NCBI GenBank assembly: GCA_965208575.1
Contig: CBDBOV010000001.1
Span: forward strand, 448,001 to 512,000
From: Spirochaetia bacterium
GTDB lineage: Bacteria; Spirochaetota; Spirochaetia; SZUA-6; Bin103
Direction of reading: 5' to 3'
DNA length: 64,000 bases
In this document: piece after piece, positions 56,741 to 64,000 of the stretch
Layout of the letters: the number at the start of each line of letters is the position of its first letter
How positions within the stretch are numbered: the first letter of the stretch is position 1
Notes under the pieces: generated by a model
Databases searched by the model: none
Seen by the model: only the letters and a program-made list of their open reading frames with translations
Told to the model about the DNA's origin: nothing
Translations under genes and position numbers: made by a program

Positions 56741-57126
56741 TCGATCCAGATGTCGACGCGGTAGCCGCGGTCGCCGTCGGCGACCTCCAGCACCGTGCCC
56801 ACGGTACCGGAGGCGATCGCTTCCTGAACCCGTTCCAGGTCGTCCGCGGAGATGCCGGCGCACGCCAGTTCCGCGGCGATCTCCTCGTGCGCCGCGAGCC
56901 GCGCGGCGAACTTCGCGAGCAACGCCGGCAGCGTGACGTGCACGCGCTGCGCACCGGTGGCCGAGTCGGTCACCCGGATGTGCAACCTGCCGCTTCCGCC
57001 ACCGTCGGGCCGGGCGGGCGCAGCGGGCGCCTCCCGCACCGCGTCCAGCAGCCGCGCCGCCTCCGCGGCGGAAATCTTCCCCTCCTCCAACAGGGAGAGG
57101 ATCTGCATCCGTTCTTCGTTCATCAT
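56737..57126 (-). CDS. SHOCT-like / YvlB-LiaX N-terminal domain protein
   Basis: EERMQILSLLEEGKISAAEAARLLDA. Confidence 0.8.
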   Translation of the reverse strand: MMNEERMQILSLLEEGKISAAEAARLLDAVREAPAAPARPDGGGSGRLHIRVTDSATGAQRVHVTLPALLAKFAARLAAHEEIAAELACAGISADDLERVQEAIASGTVGTVLEVADGDRGYRVDIWID

Positions 57127-57252
57127 CTGCCTCCCTTGGTGCCGAGCCCGACCCGCCCGCGGTCATAATACTCTACCGGGTGCCCCACCGGCCCTGGCCG
57201 ACGTGACCCGAACGTCTGCGCACTGACGACCGTGGCCCGATGCTGGCGTGCC

Positions 57253-57450
57253 TCAGCCGCCGGCGGCGTACTGCTGCAACGCGCGCACCGCCCAGTAGCC
57301 GAGCGTGGCCGGCCAGAATGCGCCGGAGATGATCGCCATCGGAATCGATGCCGAGGCTGCCGCGGCGATGCCGACGCCGATGCCGACCAGTATGTAGGTG
57401 CCACCGCTGACGCTGGTGGTGATGTGCCCGCCCTGTCTGCCGTTGGTCAT
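57253..57450 (-). CDS. small hypothetical membrane protein
   Basis: 65 aa with two hydrophobic segments and FWP..LGY. Confidence 0.55.
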   Translation of the reverse strand: MTNGRQGGHITTSVSGGTYILVGIGVGIAAAASASIPMAIISGAFWPATLGYWAVRALQQYAAGG

Positions 57451-57561
57451 GATCCCAAGGGAACCGGACCTCCGCACGAACGTCAATCGGCGCCACGCCC
57501 TCCCACGCCCTCTCCGTGACGCGGCTCGGCGGCGGCGCCGCGGCGCTGATAGAATGGCGGT

Positions 57562-58518
57562 ATGGCTGACGTGCGGATGGCAGCGGCGCGTACGGTGGGG
57601 CGGCGCCGCGGACGGCTGCTGGCGCGGATTCGCGGCAACTGGCAGCTCTACCTGATCCTGTCGGTCCCCATCGCCTTCTTCGTGATCTTTCACTACCTGC
57701 CGATGTACGGCGCGCAGATCGCGTTCCGGGAGTTCATCGCCATCAAGGGCATCTGGGGCAGCCCGTGGGTGGGCGTCGACCAGTTCGTCAAGTTCTTCCG
57801 CTCCTACCAGTTCACGCGCGTGGTGGGCAACACCGCCGGCATCGCCGTCTACACCCTGGTGGCGGGGTTTCCCATCCCGATCATCCTGGCGCTGCTGATC
57901 AACAACTCGGAGGCGCCGCGCTTCAAGAAGACCGCGCAGATGGTCACCTATGCGCCGCACTTCATCTCCACGGTGGTGATGGTGGGGTTGCTGCTGCAGT
58001 TCCTGTCGCCCCGCTACGGCGCCGTGAACGCGCTGATCAAGGCGCTCGGCTTCGAGCCGGTGCACTTCATGGGCGAGGCCGGCATGTTCTGGAGCGTGTA
58101 CGTGTGGTCGGGCATCTGGCAGGAGGCGGGCTGGGGCACGATCATCTTCCTGGCGGCGCTGGCGAGCATCGATCCCACCCTGCACGAGGCGGCGATCGTG
58201 GACGGGGCGAGCAAGCTGCAGCGCACCTGGCGCATCGACGTGCCCGGCATCCTGCCCACCGCGGTGGTGCTGCTGATCCTGCGCATGGGCCAGCTCATGA
58301 ACGTCGGCTTCGAGAAGGCGCTCCTGATGCAGAACCCGCTCAACCTGCAGGCCTCCGAGATCATCCAGACGTTCGTGTACAAGATCGGCATCGAGTCCAA
58401 CCTGCCGGCGTACTCCTACTCGTCGGCGATCGGCCTGTTCAACTCGGTGATCAACTTCGCGCTCATCATCACCGTCAACGAGATCGCCAAGCGGGTGAGC
58501 AACACCAGCCTGTGGTGA
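57562..58518 (+). CDS. carbohydrate ABC permease (LplB-like)
   Basis: FHYLPMYG.QIAF, SPWVG, YAPHFIS, EAAIVDGA. Confidence 0.93.
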   Translation: MADVRMAAARTVGRRRGRLLARIRGNWQLYLILSVPIAFFVIFHYLPMYGAQIAFREFIAIKGIWGSPWVGVDQFVKFFRSYQFTRVVGNTAGIAVYTLVAGFPIPIILALLINNSEAPRFKKTAQMVTYAPHFISTVVMVGLLLQFLSPRYGAVNALIKALGFEPVHFMGEAGMFWSVYVWSGIWQEAGWGTIIFLAALASIDPTLHEAAIVDGASKLQRTWRIDVPGILPTAVVLLILRMGQLMNVGFEKALLMQNPLNLQASEIIQTFVYKIGIESNLPAYSYSSAIGLFNSVINFALIITVNEIAKRVSNTSLW

Positions 58519-58543
58519 GGCGGGCGAGGGGGGTCATGAGGCG

Positions 58544-59431
58544 ATGGCCATAGAACGCAGCCAAGGCGACCGCGTCTACCAGTGGTGCAACAACGCCCTG
58601 CTGGCGCTCGCCATCGCGGTGGTGCTGTATCCGCTGATCTACGTGCTGTCGGCGTCGTTCAGCTCCACGCGGGCGGTGCTCGGCGGGCGGGTGTGGCTGT
58701 GGCCGGTGGAGCCGACCCTGCTCGGCTACCAGACCATCTTCGACTACGCGCTGATCTGGCGCGGCTACGCCAACACCGTGTTCTATACCTTCTTCGGCAC
58801 CATCATCAACGTGGTGCTGACCATCATGGCCGCCTACCCGCTGTCACGGCGCGACCTGGTGGGCCGCAGCCTGTTCATGTTCCTGATCACCTTCACGATG
58901 ATTTTTTCCGGCGGGCTGATTCCGACCTACCTGCTGGTGCGCGAGTTGGGGATGATCAACACGCGCTGGGTGATGATGATCCCCAACGCGATCGCCGCCT
59001 GGAACGTGATCATTACCCGCACCTACTACCAGACCACCATCTCCGACGAGCTGCTGGAGGCGGCGCAACTCGACGGCTGCAGCGACGCCCGCTTCATCTG
59101 GCAGATCGTGGTGCCGCTGTCGGGCGCCATCACCGCCGTCAACACCCTGTTCTACGCCGTCGGCCACTGGAACGCGTTCTTCAATGCCTTCATCTACCTC
59201 AACGACGACCGCCTGTTCCCGCTGCAGATCGTGCTGCGCGAGATCCTGATCGCCAACGACATCGACCTGGAGCTGACCGGCGACGTGATCGACGACGAAG
59301 CGCGCCAGGGCCTGCGCGAGCTGCTCAAGTTCTCGCTCATCGTGGTGGCCAGCGTCCCGGTGCTGATGATGTACCCCTTCGTCCAGAAGTACTTCGTCCG
59401 CGGCGTCATGATCGGCTCCATCAAGGGCTAA
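58544..59431 (+). CDS. carbohydrate ABC permease (LplC-like)
   Basis: AAYPLSR, FSGGLIPTY, EAAQLDG, YPFVQKYFVRGVMIGSIKG. Confidence 0.93.
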   Translation: MAIERSQGDRVYQWCNNALLALAIAVVLYPLIYVLSASFSSTRAVLGGRVWLWPVEPTLLGYQTIFDYALIWRGYANTVFYTFFGTIINVVLTIMAAYPLSRRDLVGRSLFMFLITFTMIFSGGLIPTYLLVRELGMINTRWVMMIPNAIAAWNVIITRTYYQTTISDELLEAAQLDGCSDARFIWQIVVPLSGAITAVNTLFYAVGHWNAFFNAFIYLNDDRLFPLQIVLREILIANDIDLELTGDVIDDEARQGLRELLKFSLIVVASVPVLMMYPFVQKYFVRGVMIGSIKG

Positions 59432-59530
59432 GCAGCCCGTGGCGAAACTCCGGCTGCATTCGAGCGGCGATCCATCCCGTCTGGCTGCGTTGCTCCTCGC
59501 TCCCATATACACGGATATGCTCGTTCGTCG

Positions 59531-61528
59531 TCGCGCCAGGCCAAGCCTGGGGAAGGAGGAAGATGAAATAGACATCAGAAACCTTTCTTAGCCACCCCGT
59601 GGGTAGCCAATCCCATCCGGTAAAGCATAGCAAGCAGCCGGAAGCGAGTCTTGCGTCGGCAGGGGCGACCCTGAGGGCGAAGCGTAGACAGCGACCGCAG
59701 AAGCCGTGTGATTGAGCCTCGAAAGGAGAATGCTCGCTGGGGCCTTCGTAGTCGACAATGCGGGGGCAGCACCGTACGTGCCGAAATGGCGAGGCACGGC
59801 GGCCCGGTCGGGGTCGGAGAGCAGGGCAGATGCGGAGCGGGTGGCCCAGGAACCTGGGAGAGCTCGATGTCTCCATGACGGGAGAGCCGGAGGGACGCCG
59901 GCACACCAACGTCCGGGCCTGCACGGGAGAGCGCCCGTGAACGTGCAGGAGCGAAGCAGCGGGTGCGGTCGTGGTACCGCCAAGCGAAGGCAACGAAGCG
60001 CGGCGGGAAGGGCAACGAGCAGTCTTAGCGCCCCCATAGTACCGAGGAAGCGGGGGAACGGTCGCCGCACCGGACCCGGCGGAGGGAAGGAGGGCGTCAA
60101 GTCGTAGAACTGGTGCGGGGAAACATGGAGGATGCGATGGAATCCGGGAACGTGTTAACGAAACAGCAGCAGATAGCAGAGAACGCGAGAATCCACGCCG
60201 GCGTGGCATTCACGTCGCTGGCGTATCACATGGATCTGGAGTGGCTGTACGAAGCCTACCGGCGTACCCGGAAGGATGGTGCAGTTGGAGTTGACGAACA
60301 GACTGCCGAGCAGTACGGGGAGAACCTGGAGCAGAATTTGAAATCACTGCTGGAGCGGGCGAAGGCGGGAACGTACCGCGCGCCGCCGGTAAGGCGGGCG
60401 CACATTCCGAAAGGGAAGGGCGGAGAAACCCGCCCGATCGGGATACCGACCTTCGAGGACAAGGTACTTCAGCGGGCGGTACAGATGCTGCTTGAGCCCC
60501 TGTACGAGCGAGACTTTCTAAGCTGTGCACACGGCTTTCGCCCGAAGCGATCGCCGCACACGGCGCTGCAAGCACTCTGGGACCAGATGATGGGTCAAGG
60601 GGGCGGTTGGGTGATAGACCTGGACATACGAAAGTATTTCGACACGCTGTCACACGCTACCATGCGCACGATTCTGGCACAGCGGATGCGAGATGGAGTG
60701 ATCACACGATTGATCGGAAAATGGCTAAAGGCAGGGGTCATGGAAGATGGCTCAGTGACCTACCCGGAGCAGGGGACACCGCAAGGTGGCGTACTATCGC
60801 CGTTGCTCAGCAATGTTTATCTGCACGAGGTACTCGACCGATGGTTCTATGAGGTGGTCCGACCGCGCCTGCGGGGGCGGGCGTTCCTGGTGCGTTTTGC
60901 GGACGATGCGGTACTGACGTTCAGCGACCGGCGCGATGCCGAGAACGTGCTGCGCGTGTTACCAAAGCGCTTCGCGAAGTACGGGTTGACCGTGCACGAG
61001 GAAAAGACACGGATGCTTCAGTTTCGACCGCCGGGAGGGAACGCGACAGCCCACCACGGGGCGAGTTTTCCATTCTTGGGATTCACGCACTATTGGGGGC
61101 GCTCGCGCAACGGGAAGTGGATCGTGAAGCGGAAAACCGCCTCCGACCGGCTGACCCGTGCGTTACGAGCACTCGCCGTGTGGTGTAAGCGCCATCGGCA
61201 CGAGCCTCTGCGGGCGCAGCAAGCGGCCCTCCGGCGCAAGCTGCTGGGCCACTATGGGTATTACGGCATTACCGGCAATGGGCGCTCGTTGGGGTACTTC
61301 CACGACGCCGCCAAGCGCCTCTGGTTGAAGTGGCTGAACCGGCGCGGTGGACGACGCCTCACGTGGGCCTGCTTTGCGCGGTTGCTGGCCCGATATCCGC
61401 TGCCGGCCGTTCGTGTCGTCCAGTCCATCTATGCAGCGAACTCTACGACCTGAGGAACCGTGTGCGTCAATCGCGCTCGCACGGGACTGTGGGGGCCTGG
61501 GGCGGGCAACCGCCCTGGGCTACCCGGA
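59531..61528 (+). mobile_element. group II intron (endonuclease-less, class E/F-like)
   Basis: Structured 5' leader, RT ORF, DV-like hairpin at 61455-61487, DVI with GCAA loop and bulged A at 61522. Removal restores GTCG|CGCCTTGCCAGC as in the copy at 44516-44531. Confidence 0.88.
60113..61453 (+). CDS. ltrA: group II intron reverse transcriptase/maturase
   Basis: RT0 GAVGVD, IPK...RPIGIP..EDK, GFRP, DLDIRKYFD, GTPQGG.LSP, RFADD, FLGF and domain X. No HNH domain. Confidence 0.95.
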   Translation: MRGNMEDAMESGNVLTKQQQIAENARIHAGVAFTSLAYHMDLEWLYEAYRRTRKDGAVGVDEQTAEQYGENLEQNLKSLLERAKAGTYRAPPVRRAHIPKGKGGETRPIGIPTFEDKVLQRAVQMLLEPLYERDFLSCAHGFRPKRSPHTALQALWDQMMGQGGGWVIDLDIRKYFDTLSHATMRTILAQRMRDGVITRLIGKWLKAGVMEDGSVTYPEQGTPQGGVLSPLLSNVYLHEVLDRWFYEVVRPRLRGRAFLVRFADDAVLTFSDRRDAENVLRVLPKRFAKYGLTVHEEKTRMLQFRPPGGNATAHHGASFPFLGFTHYWGRSRNGKWIVKRKTASDRLTRALRALAVWCKRHRHEPLRAQQAALRRKLLGHYGYYGITGNGRSLGYFHDAAKRLWLKWLNRRGGRRLTWACFARLLARYPLPAVRVVQSIYAANSTT

Positions 61529-61563
61529 CGCCTTGCCAGCCGGGCGCCTCGCCGCTCTCGGTG

Positions 61564-62742
61564 CTACGCCGGGTTCCACCACGGGCTGCTAGCCGGCAAG
61601 CTGGCGTCTGGCGCTGGCGGGGCGTGGTCGACGACGTGGGTCATCAGCGACGGGATGCCGGCCATCCAGACGACCGGCGGCAGTTGCCCCGGCGGGGTCC
61701 ATATGTAACCCAGCCGGTGCAACTCCTCGCGCGCGGCCAGCCGGGCAGCGGCGTCGGCGCCGGTCGTGGCCAGGGCCGCGTCGATGGCGTGGTCGGAGAC
61801 GGCGGCGCCGGATTGGAACAGCGGCGCCGTCGCCGCGGCCGCGGGCAGCAGGCCGCGCCCCTCCAGTTCGCGATAGCGATCCTGGTAGTAGTCGGTAACC
61901 CTGGCGGCCACGTCGGCGCGCGCCGCGTCCGCGTGCGCGGTGGTGAGCCGCGTCGCGCCGGTGGCCAGGCGCTGCTGCCAAAGGGCGCGCCCCCAAACCT
62001 GGATGAAGTACGGGTAGCACTGGCTGTCCTCGACTACCGCATCGACGGCATCGGCGTCGATCGCCACGCCGTGGGCGCGCAGCGGCTCGACCAGGGCGGC
62101 GCGCGCGGCCGCGGCGCTCAGCAGACCGATGCCCAGGCGGCCTTCGTCCAGCCGACTCCAGAAGGACGCGTTCATGGCGCCGAGATGCGCCGCCAAACCC
62201 GGCGTGCCGGCGAGCACCAGCAGGAACGGGGCGTCGCCGCGCACCTGTTGACTGGCGTTGAGCAGCGTTCTGCCCACCCCGAGATCGAGCGTGTGCGCCT
62301 CGTCGAGCAGCACGGCAAGCGGTTTCTTGCGGCACCGAGCGGTCAATTCCGCCCGCAGGTTCCGCACGCCCCCGGACGGCGGCGCCCATTCGACCGAACC
62401 CACGGCCGCCACACCCACCTTCCGGGGCAGCAGTTTCATCACCGCGGACGACGGCGACAGGACGTCGATCAGCGCTTCCCGCGTGGAGATGTCGTCGGGT
62501 GTCGCGGCCACCACGTCCACTTCCGTAGCGTGGTCGCGGCAGGTGCGCTCGAACCAGCCTAGCAGCACGGTCTTGCCGTTGCCGCGCGGCCCGGTCAGGA
62601 CGACGTCGTGCGGCGGGGACGTGCCGCCGAGCAGGTCTGTCAGACACCGGGTCAGTACTGCCTGCTCCCGTTCGCGCCCGGTAAGCGCCGGCGGCATGGC
62701 ACCCGTACCGGGAGTGAATACGCGCTGTTGCGCCTCCGTCAT
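61564..62742 (-). CDS. AAA (archaeal-type P-loop) ATP-binding protein
   Basis: FTPGTGAMPP.L.GR, GPRGNGKT, LLDEAH, YPYFIQ.WG. The last codons read into the MITE end. Confidence 0.85.
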   Translation of the reverse strand: MTEAQQRVFTPGTGAMPPALTGREREQAVLTRCLTDLLGGTSPPHDVVLTGPRGNGKTVLLGWFERTCRDHATEVDVVAATPDDISTREALIDVLSPSSAVMKLLPRKVGVAAVGSVEWAPPSGGVRNLRAELTARCRKKPLAVLLDEAHTLDLGVGRTLLNASQQVRGDAPFLLVLAGTPGLAAHLGAMNASFWSRLDEGRLGIGLLSAAAARAALVEPLRAHGVAIDADAVDAVVEDSQCYPYFIQVWGRALWQQRLATGATRLTTAHADAARADVAARVTDYYQDRYRELEGRGLLPAAAATAPLFQSGAAVSDHAIDAALATTGADAAARLAAREELHRLGYIWTPPGQLPPVVWMAGIPSLMTHVVDHAPPAPDASLPASSPWWNPA

Positions 62743-63077
62743 GCCGGCGAATACGGCACCACGGCGACTCCCTGCAGACGAGAAGCCGAATCCGCGGTCA
62801 AGCTTCGTGACACCGAGGCAAGCGATTGAGCCATCAGGTTGTCGTCCATGGTGGATCATCGGCCAAGGCAAGTCAAGCTCAGTTCGCTCAGCCCCGCGGG
62901 GCGCGCCGCGATCCTTGCCATCGAGAGCTGGCGCACAAGCGCTCGCGATGCGGGGTCCGTCCGGGCCGTCCTCCGGAGCGCCATGTTGAACGGCACCCGG
63001 CATTTCGGTAAGGTTTCAAGCGCCCCGGCACGGCGATGAACGGCTCAGCCGACCGGCTGGGAACATGGAGTGTTTCG

Positions 63078-63515
63078 ATGAGTACGGTTCTCGACGAAGT
63101 CACCAGCGAAGCCATAGACGCGACGCACGTACGGCGGCGCGTCGATGACTGGGAAGAGCGCTTGAACGGACTCTACGAGACGATCGGTGACTGGTTGCCG
63201 GACGGGTGGGTCGCCCGGCGCGGCGCCCCGGTGCTCATGCACGAAAAGCTGATGCGCAAGTTCGGTGTCGCGTCGAGACCGATGCCCACGCTCGAGCTCC
63301 ACGACCGGACCGGCCAGTTCGTCAAGCTTGAACCGCATGCATTGTGGATCATCGGCAACAACGGCCGGGTCGACGTGAGACGCGACGGTCGCCGCTTCCT
63401 CATCGTCGATGCGGCCGACAACTTCGAAGAACCGGACTGGCAGGTGGCTCGCGACGACCAGCGGCGCCGCCTCGAGTCCGTCACGCGCGATTGGCTGATA
63501 CGGTTCCTGGGGTGA
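63078..63515 (+). CDS. conserved-looking hypothetical protein
   Basis: GGAG SD and globular composition (RVDDW..RL..LY, EE/EKLM, LWIIG.NGRVD). Confidence 0.7.
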   Translation: MSTVLDEVTSEAIDATHVRRRVDDWEERLNGLYETIGDWLPDGWVARRGAPVLMHEKLMRKFGVASRPMPTLELHDRTGQFVKLEPHALWIIGNNGRVDVRRDGRRFLIVDAADNFEEPDWQVARDDQRRRLESVTRDWLIRFLG

Positions 63516-63688
63516 GCGACCTTCAGGCCATCGCGGAATCCTACCAACGGATCGACAGCTATCTCGGAGACTTGCGCGATAGCGTGCGCAACCAGATCGC
63601 CCACGGCACTCTTCTCTCCGAACGCATCGACGTGTCCAGCGAGATACAGGACTTCTTTCGTATTCGGTCATCGCTGGCGCGGGAGTGA
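63512..63688 (+). pseudogene. HEPN-like remnant
   Basis: 58 aa, coupled to the upstream stop, with RNQIAHG (Rx4H). Too short for a full HEPN fold. Confidence 0.5.
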
Positions 63689-63757
63689 GCGACATGGCCG
63701 GCCGATCGTAGTGGTTGGAGGCCCGCAAGCGGCCGCGGGTCGCGGTGTGCGGACCGG

Positions 63758-64000
63758 TCAGTCGACCAGCGGCAGGGTGGCCGTTGCGGTGAGGCCCTTC
63801 ATCGTCTGGTCGGCGTGGCGGATCATCGTGTCCGGGTCGGCCGCGTCGTTGGAGTTGTCCATGTCCATGCCGGTGCACGTAGCGCGTTCGTCGATCCGAT
63901 GAAGTTCGCGCCATACCACGACGAAGTCCTCCACGCGCTGCAGGGGCTGGGAGATCCCGCGTTCGGTCGACATATGGCCAAGGACCGCGGTTCGTCGCTC
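63758..64000 (-). CDS. C-terminus of an unidentified protein
   Basis: Open frame from the window edge to TGA at 63758 with GC3-rich codons. Confidence 0.5.
   Translation of the reverse strand, partial: ERRTAVLGHMSTERGISQPLQRVEDFVVVWRELHRIDERATCTGMDMDNSNDAADPDTMIRHADQTMKGLTATATLPLVD

Follow-up and report, generated by a model that had tools for sequence, protein, structure and literature searches.

A multi-copy group II intron of a Spirochaetia bacterium with an AAC catalytic triad, covarying J2/3 nucleotides and UCGCG...GA ends

The stretch of DNA analyzed here, referred to as the window, comprises 64,000 nucleotides (nt) from a Spirochaetia bacterium (assembly GCA_965208575.1, contig CBDBOV010000001.1, positions 448,001 to 512,000 of the forward strand). 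At 59531-61528 on the plus strand it holds a complete group II intron of 1998 nt, made up of an RF02005-type domain 1, an intact reverse transcriptase (RT)/maturase gene, and domains 5 and 6 (Table 1). The intron is intergenic, between convergent genes, and lies within an approximately 164-bp repeated extragenic element that begins directly after the stop codon of an upstream ABC permease gene (open reading frame (ORF) 58544-59431); BLAST of the flanks found tens of copies of this element in the genome. The domain 5 catalytic triad, which is generally either AGC or CGC (PMC12350094, PMC7583470), reads AAC. The three nucleotides of the segment joining domains 2 and 3 (J2/3) read UUA where relatives have GGA. 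Comparison with 160 related loci indicated that these departures, and those at the intron ends, are matched by changes at the nucleotides they are expected to contact.

The Rfam scan covered positions 57000-64000 and returned one strong match, to the full RF02005 model (group-II-D1D4-6), which at 153.5 bits and an E value of 4.5e-45 is not a chance match. The intron ORF is open for 446 amino acids and starts at GTG 60113 or, more likely from an alignment of relatives, at ATG 60125. Its product scored 328.8 bits against the NCBIfam equivalog TIGR04416 (group II intron reverse transcriptase/maturase; cut-off 300), RVT_1 was its only Pfam match, and no endonuclease family was detected in it, even at an E value of 10. 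A tblastn search against plasmids gave best matches of 57% (Halomonas) and then 37-39% (Bradyrhizobium, Klebsiella, Sinorhizobium), and showed no clear class affinity. The 75 nt after the ORF stop fold as two hairpins (minimum-free-energy fold, -46 kcal/mol, z -3.69). The first is a 33-nt domain 5 in which the triad strand faces G61484, G61485, A61486 and C61487, and the second is domain 6. J2/3 lies within a ten-nt unpaired stretch (60021-60030) between the domain 2 closing helix and the domain 3 stem.

The element thus has a domain 1 bearing exon-binding site 1 (EBS1), a 33-nt domain 5 hairpin, close to the typical 34 nt or so, with a 2-nt bulge, a bulged A in domain 6 that falls within the usual 7-8 nt of the 3' end, an RT/maturase ORF in domain 4, a gamma-gamma prime pair, and site-specific insertion without target duplication. 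It departs from the group II consensus in its triad (AAC for AGC/CGC) and in its boundaries (UCGCG...GA for GUGYG...AY). Judged on sequence, it appears to behave as a group II intron that fails just two commonly quoted sequence signatures.

BLAST identified five near-identical copies of the intron at five different sites in the genome of this organism (G000; 6.5 Mb, 6 contigs, 67% G+C). Four match query bases 1 to 1998 without a break, and the fifth (G000:C5:153102-155679, loci L005/L006) is split after intron nucleotide 138 by approximately 570 bp, with a 9-nt overlap or duplication. Each of the five keeps an open ORF. Only two differences separate them: position 59731, in a loop of domain 1 that is perhaps EBS2, is T or A, and the EBS1 loop is one A longer (at 59758/59759) in C2b and C5. 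In C2b a U at exon position -7 matches this added A, which is unmatched in C5; the intron population is diversifying its exon-binding loops. The insert in the C5 copy matches the two ends of an approximately 1.44 kb multi-copy repeat and is therefore an internally deleted insertion sequence (IS)-like element; a 99.8% identical copy of the insert is found at C4:140183-140758.

The 5' flanks differ between copies yet all end in GUCG, reading UUGUCG in three of the five and UCGUCG in the other two, including the window copy. The EBS1 loop CGACAA is complementary to the exon ends of all five. The flanks of three intron copies are unrelated. The other two, in the window and on C6, are inside the repeated element, three uninterrupted copies of which (C5:821556/821555, C6:952467/952468 and C3:212605/212604) read from 5' flank to 3' flank exactly. 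These three empty sites fix the intron ends at 5'-UCGCG ... CCCGGA-3', and without ambiguity, because the bordering nucleotides differ: G closes the 5' exon and A the intron, and U opens the intron and C the 3' exon. No target-site duplication was found beside the intron copies. A 24-nt joined-flank probe allowing up to 3 mismatches had 0 matches to an empty site inside the window. For the unique-flank copy C2b, no exact empty site was recovered from the 31 genomes searched (including the window's own), 16 of which had a match; the best relatives of that site carry approximately 15 extra nt at the site and hence are not exact empty sites. No convincing EBS2/IBS2 or EBS3/IBS3 pairing (IBS, intron-binding site) was found, and no EBS3 partner was identified for the C of the 3' exon. 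Together, the copies and the exact empty sites point to recent mobility.

A first-pass annotation of this DNA had proposed the ends UCGCG and CCCGGA on the strength of an empty-site comparison. The ends themselves stand, confirmed by the three empty sites; those sites are outside the window, however, so the window by itself gave no basis for such a comparison. The remaining anatomical readings of that annotation were all recovered: the bulged A 7 nt from the end is A61522 in the domain 6 fold, the AAC triad (61456-61458) faces GGAC across a hairpin with a UC bulge, UUA (60025-60027) is in the unpaired stretch that aligns with the GGA of relatives, the stem-loop offered as support for the 5' boundary (59742-59767, exposing CGACAA) is the hairpin of the Rfam model and pairs with the exon ends of the five copies, and the RT ORF is intact.

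Table 1. Coordinates of the intron, its parts and its target within the window
Feature	Position	Strand	Evidence
5' half of ~164-bp repeated extragenic element, the intron target	59431..59530	+	BLAST of flanks; tens of copies, three uninterrupted
IBS1, the six nt UCGUCG that close the 5' exon (three other copies have UUGUCG)	59525..59530	+	Complementary to 59753-59758
Group II intron, complete, 1998 nt	59531..61528	+	Five copies spanning exactly these ends; exact empty sites
5' terminus UCGCG (canonical GUGYG); U1 would contact penultimate G61527	59531..59535	+	Empty sites, covariation
Domain 1 core, Rfam group-II-D1D4-6	59607..59823	+	153.5 bits, E 4.5e-45, model 1-225
EBS1 hairpin; loop CGACAA at 59753-59758	59742..59767	+	Hairpin of Rfam model; pairs with exon ends
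3' strand of domain 2 closing helix	60014..60020	+	RNAalifold, 26 sequences, many two-sided changes
J2/3 UUA: U60025 gamma, U60026 probable partner of A61457, A60027 invariant	60025..60027	+	Alignment, covariation
Intron-encoded RT/maturase, domain 4, no endonuclease domain detected	60113..61453	+	ORF, RVT_1, TIGR04416 328.8 bits
Domain 5: 9-position lower helix, UC bulge 61477-61478, 4-bp upper helix, 5-nt loop	61455..61487	+	Fold z -3.69; covariation
Catalytic triad AAC (canonical AGC or CGC)	61456..61458	+	A61456 faces A61486, A61457 faces G61485, C61458 pairs with G61484
Domain 6, GCAA loop, bulged branch-point candidate A61522 (seventh from end)	61490..61526	+	Fold, covariation
3' terminus GA (canonical AY); G61527 putative U1 partner, A61528 gamma prime	61527..61528	+	Empty sites, covariation
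3' exon, other half of repeat; first nucleotide C, candidate IBS3	61529..61592	+	Copy flanks, empty sites

To place the intron among its relatives, we used its protein as a query and obtained 522 confirmed stretches in species-representative genomes and 591 in metagenomes, of which the best 80 of each were retained (160 loci). Among these best 160 matches, which come from many phyla, protein identity was 53-69%. RF02005 matched all 20 of the relative loci tested, and the domain 5/6 model RF00029 matched 10 of the 20 at an E value of 0.01 or better with marginal scores (39-49 bits). Because regular expressions combined with a domain 6 pairing score gave many false 3' ends, the ends and domains 5 and 6 were read from an 84-row MAFFT alignment holding only rows on which two parsers agreed and which were neither cut by a contig end nor duplicates. 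The helices of domains 5 and 6 were paired in 94.1% of cells over the 84 rows, and 18 of their 28 pairs vary on both sides; none of 500 shuffles scored as high.

The norm of the class is a GUGCG 5' end, a GGA J2/3, an AGC triad and a GAC 3' end. A five-nucleotide domain 5 loop is found across the whole class, as is a triad G that faces A and not U (a non-standard pair in 81 of 84 rows). Canonical members such as L012, L014, L031 and L069, whose RT/maturase likewise has no detected endonuclease domain, resemble the window intron in their RF02005 domain 1, domain 5/6 shape, EBS1 register and protein family (53-69% identity), but read GUGCG...GAC, GGA and AGC where the window reads UCGCG...GGA, UUA and AAC.

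In group II introns and U6 snRNA alike, the triad G and the J2/3 G stacking on it are regarded as nearly universal. Mutating the triad G is a classic way to kill the ribozyme in the ai5-gamma literature. Domain 5 was readable in 149 rows of the tree set, and 20 of these carry AAC, all with an open frame of at least 446 codons. Opposite the middle A of the triad, the AAC loci have A in 8 cases and G in 12, the window counted. The triad and J2/3 were both readable in 97 rows: AGC occurred with GGA in 79, AAC with UUA in 7 and AAC with GUA in 7, and the remainder were single cases of AAC/GGA (L046), AGC/CGA, AGC/AGA and AGC/GCA (L147). The middle J2/3 nucleotide was therefore U in 14 of 15 AAC loci, whereas no AGC locus (0 of 82) had U there (Fisher test without phylogenetic correction, p 5e-16).

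The two covarying positions, the middle of J2/3 and the middle of the triad, are those that solved structures place in one base triple (PMC6224600, PMC7583470). In P.li.LSUI2, J2/3 consists of A420 (gamma), nucleotide 421 and A422, with A422 contacting triad A551 (PMC6224600). For the middle triple, PMC7583470 has G-G-U. Replacing G-on-G by U-on-A would keep a Hoogsteen-type third-strand pair at this position. With regard to locus L147, C over G in its GCA/AGC combination would be the other classical Hoogsteen triple.

The AAC loci do not form one group on the protein tree. In a FastTree phylogeny of 160 proteins, the triad requires at least 7 changes and the middle position of J2/3 at least 6. 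An IQ-TREE phylogeny (LG+G4, quick) was built from 88 rows, namely all 20 AAC rows with 68 AGC rows chosen near them and spanning the tree; here the triad requires 7 changes, at least 4 of which are forced by branches with a Shimodaira-Hasegawa-like approximate likelihood ratio test (SH-aLRT) value of 95 or more. A single AAC clade was rejected by the approximately unbiased (AU) test, its log-likelihood being 228 lower (p 7.5e-8); this test was run after the first tree had been seen, with the AAC group defined by the RNA and not by the tree. On the protein tree, then, AAC appears to have arisen several times, at least four of them on well-supported branches. The nearest relatives of the window intron in the 160-row tree form a supported clade of 8, all of which have AAC and open frames and come from other samples.

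The intron ends covary as well. Among the 54 rows of the 84-row alignment in which both were read, gamma and the last nucleotide, which pair in P.li.LSUI2 (PMC6224600), were G-C in 49 and U-A in 5, with nothing else; the corresponding pair in the window is U60025 with A61528. By eye only, two further combinations could be read: C with G in L042 and A with U in L132. The first and penultimate nucleotides were G/A in 32 rows and U/G in 13 (45 rows), and the two loci with C at position 1 (L020 and L127) have a penultimate G, again read by eye only.

Introns of this lineage often begin with a nucleotide other than G. Of the 90 loci with a readable 5' end, 57 start with G, and the other 33 start with UU (22), UC (6), CU (2), UA (2) or UG (1). 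At least 5 contiguous Watson-Crick pairs between EBS1 and the final nucleotides of the exon were present in 19 of the 33 non-G introns versus 1 of 31 control 6-mers, taken 12 nt upstream, and in 22 of the 57 G-start introns versus 0 of 54 controls, so that EBS1 lends independent support to these putative 5' ends. With its exact empty sites, the window intron is the best-documented non-G start in the lineage. The six UUA loci with a readable 5' end all have C or G at position 2.

Two further observations concern the ends of the relatives. In domains 5 and 6 of the 84 loci, the nucleotide preceding the branch A, opposite an A, is mostly G or C if the intron begins with U, and introns with G at position 1 have, like the clade of the window, a U before the branch A that gives a G-U pair. 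In L055, a contig of 2113 nt, an intron 5' end follows the intron 3' end without a gap, and the same 5' end also opens the contig; a head-to-tail tandem, self-insertion or wrap-around in the assembly could each account for this arrangement.

Several described introns share part of this picture. UHB.I2, a bacterial intron assigned to class CL1, is reported to have an AGC triad and the ends UUGCG..GU (PMC7923331), and one group in plant mitochondria is called 'rare UUGCG' (PMC6867995). Like the window intron, these have a first nucleotide other than G and keep GCG at positions 3-5. They differ in that the window intron carries C as its second nucleotide and GA at its 3' end, and the two reports describe no J2/3 change and note the ends as a deviation without an analysis of partners. 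C.te.I1 and fungal rRNA introns splice away from GUGYG, the site being shifted 1-33 nt upstream by extra nucleotides (PMC4424553). The first nucleotide of the excised intron is likewise not the G of GUGYG in those cases, but they keep the motif, whereas in the window it is changed in place.

The triplex of P.li.LSUI2 and the O. iheyensis intron resembles the arrangement proposed here in having three J2/3 nucleotides, gamma first and the other two stacking on the triad, together with a two-nt domain 5 bulge and gamma pairing with the last intron nucleotide (PMC6224600, PMC7583470). The middle triple of the solved introns is G on G-U, and that of the window would be U on A facing G; their first triad pair is A-U, whereas the window has A facing A. 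The AGC triad of U6 and the U2/U6 triplex form a homologous metal-binding triple helix with a G-on-G middle triple (PMC7583470), which, unlike that of the window intron, sits in a protein-embedded machine. Within an open-access library and search listings, our search found no group II report of an AAC triad, UCGCG ends or covariation of the J2/3 and triad G. What appears to be new here is the AAC/UUA core with UCGCG...GA ends in a group II intron; UUGCG starts were already known.

Starting from what was observed directly, namely the anatomy, the exact ends in the DNA, the number of copies and the covariation, we propose how splicing, branching and the geometry of the new triple might proceed. 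The intron would be transcribed along with the flanking DNA, in this case behind the ABC permease gene, and its RNA would fold with the help of its own protein. Splicing would occur by branching at A61522, and the resulting lariat-protein particle would reverse-splice into DNA sites whose last six nt pair with the EBS1 loop (UUGUCG / CGACAA). Three contacts would be preserved by changes on both sides. First, U would replace G in the middle of J2/3 and stack on an A replacing G in the middle of the triad, so that the G-on-G triple gives way to a U-on-A Hoogsteen-type triple. Second, gamma-gamma prime would be U60025-A61528 in place of G-C. Third, the contact of first and penultimate nucleotides would be made by U1 and G61527 in place of G and A.

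With good confidence, though from sequence comparison, we regard the element as a functional and recently retromobile group II intron, with an RF02005-type ribozyme, an RT/maturase lacking a detected endonuclease domain, and contacts compensated on both sides. The first-pass annotation had likewise described a variant but working ribozyme in which gamma U with the terminal A, and the J2/3 G to U change with the triad G to A change, are compensatory. The near-identical copies and exact empty sites agree with such a view; the gamma pair is Watson-Crick in all 54 rows, and the J2/3-triad association, having multiple origins, fits compensation. By a narrower measure we also favor the broader proposition that the triad G and J2/3 G have been replaced by A and U in active mobile introns at least four times independently, that the middle layer is a replaceable triple, that the first and penultimate nucleotides are exchanged freely (G, U, C), and that surveys undercount such introns.

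Several observations weigh against these readings. RF00029 (Intron_gpII, domains 5/6; gathering threshold 40 bits) did not match the window at E values up to 1, and it also missed all five genomic copies at that E value limit. The first triad pair is A-U in 83 of the 84 rows; A facing A occurs only in the window and has no evident compensation. A UC start is also found once with GGA and AGC (L166), and no partner was found for position 2. For the relatives, boundaries were placed by homology and by EBS1 pairing, not by empty sites, and the protein tree may differ from the ribozyme tree if the two have recombined. L046 (AAC with GGA) and L147 (AGC with GCA) are exceptions to the pairing of states; they may be intermediates between the two core states.

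RNA contigs were examined as well. Public runs listed for window positions 59331-61728 number 24, of which 20 hold part of the region, 2 are recorded as RNA, and several are labelled sponge metagenome; four of the 24 were examined (X19 and X20, which are metatranscriptome contigs, X1 and X5). The exact 59530>61529 joint is present in RNA contigs (2 in X19 and 1 in X20) and absent from the listed DNA contigs. However, the sides of these contigs are only 27-34 nt and all within the repeat, so the joint is indistinguishable from transcripts of empty repeat copies and is uninformative on splicing. The RNA contigs that cover the intron, from the two metatranscriptome runs, represent a relative that is 6-7% diverged.

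The strongest alternative is that the intron is functional but AAC and the J2/3 U are not in contact, their association reflecting joint descent or linkage to a third change while the protein stabilizes the active site. A phylogeny-aware sign test gives this some room: of 5 independent pairs on starred branches, 4 changed the same way, 0 the opposite way and 1 was unchanged (p 0.125, underpowered), a result that also belongs with the evidence against compensation. L046 combines AAC with GGA and has an open frame, the class core is already off the textbook pattern in its triad G facing A, suggesting a tolerant core, and most nucleobases of the spliceosome triplex are reported to be dispensable in extract (PMC7583470). 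Nevertheless, solved structures put both positions in one base triple, the AAC loci are not one clade and yet carry U almost without exception where the AGC loci never do, and the adjacent gamma-gamma prime pair shows clean Watson-Crick covariation. We therefore consider the absence of a contact unlikely.

Far less probable is that the odd triad, J2/3 and termini are inactivating mutations in a decayed relic. Although RF00029 is blind to its domains 5 and 6, an insertion interrupts one of the five, and the same genome holds decayed relatives (at least 9 further RF02005 matches above the gathering score), the five copies occupy different sites with at most one difference each and an open frame in all, exact empty sites exist, and random decay would not yield paired changes at three known contacts. 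Close homologs with AGC and RGA, which would have marked this copy as merely decayed, are also not what surrounds it, as the same states recur in the clade of 8 from other samples.

We give equally little credence to a mobile intron that is a poor forward splicer, selfish in non-coding sites, with an odd core that reflects relaxed selection. The position of the window copy, intergenic and inside a repeat between convergent genes, would suit such an element, but the paired changes argue for maintained contacts, and retromobility requires excised intron RNA and so catalysis by the same active site. Finally, that the true splice sites are canonical (GUGYG...AY) and elsewhere, the 1998-bp unit having moved as DNA in some other way, is scarcely credible: the joint in RNA contigs is ambiguous and two of the five copies are inside a multi-copy element, but the other three have unrelated flanks, the unit starts right after the EBS1-pairing exon nucleotides in the same register as in relatives and finishes 6 nt past the bulged domain 6 A, the gamma-gamma prime and first/penultimate covariation fit the observed ends and not canonical ones elsewhere, and the copies are not flanked by a target duplication.

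The further RF02005 matches in the genome include L168 (C4:536000-539000), C6:952910-953129 and C6:1384895-1385121. L168 has a canonical GUGCG start (L168:288) and an ORF (416-1672) that keeps the fingers and the maturase part, with the polymerase palm deleted. No domain 5 was found downstream of these further matches, which look like decayed relatives or a derived element family, separate from the window element.

In group II introns, the AGC triad and the triple helix bind two catalytic metal ions, as they do homologously in the spliceosome. If the proposed reading is true, the middle layer of the catalytic triple helix would be a replaceable base triple and not a chemically indispensable guanine. 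A recurrent natural double change would provide independent evolutionary support for the structure-based contact between J2/3 and the triad, and the loci described here would supply a natural sequence set for mutant-cycle and structural work on the role of the middle triple in metal binding and in the rearrangement between splicing steps. Both the first/penultimate contact and gamma-gamma prime also covary naturally within this single lineage. Because the standard domain 5/6 covariance model misses such introns, annotation pipelines that require that match will not call them. For specialists of both the ribozyme and the spliceosome, an 'invariant' catalytic nucleotide would become a testable, naturally compensated contact.

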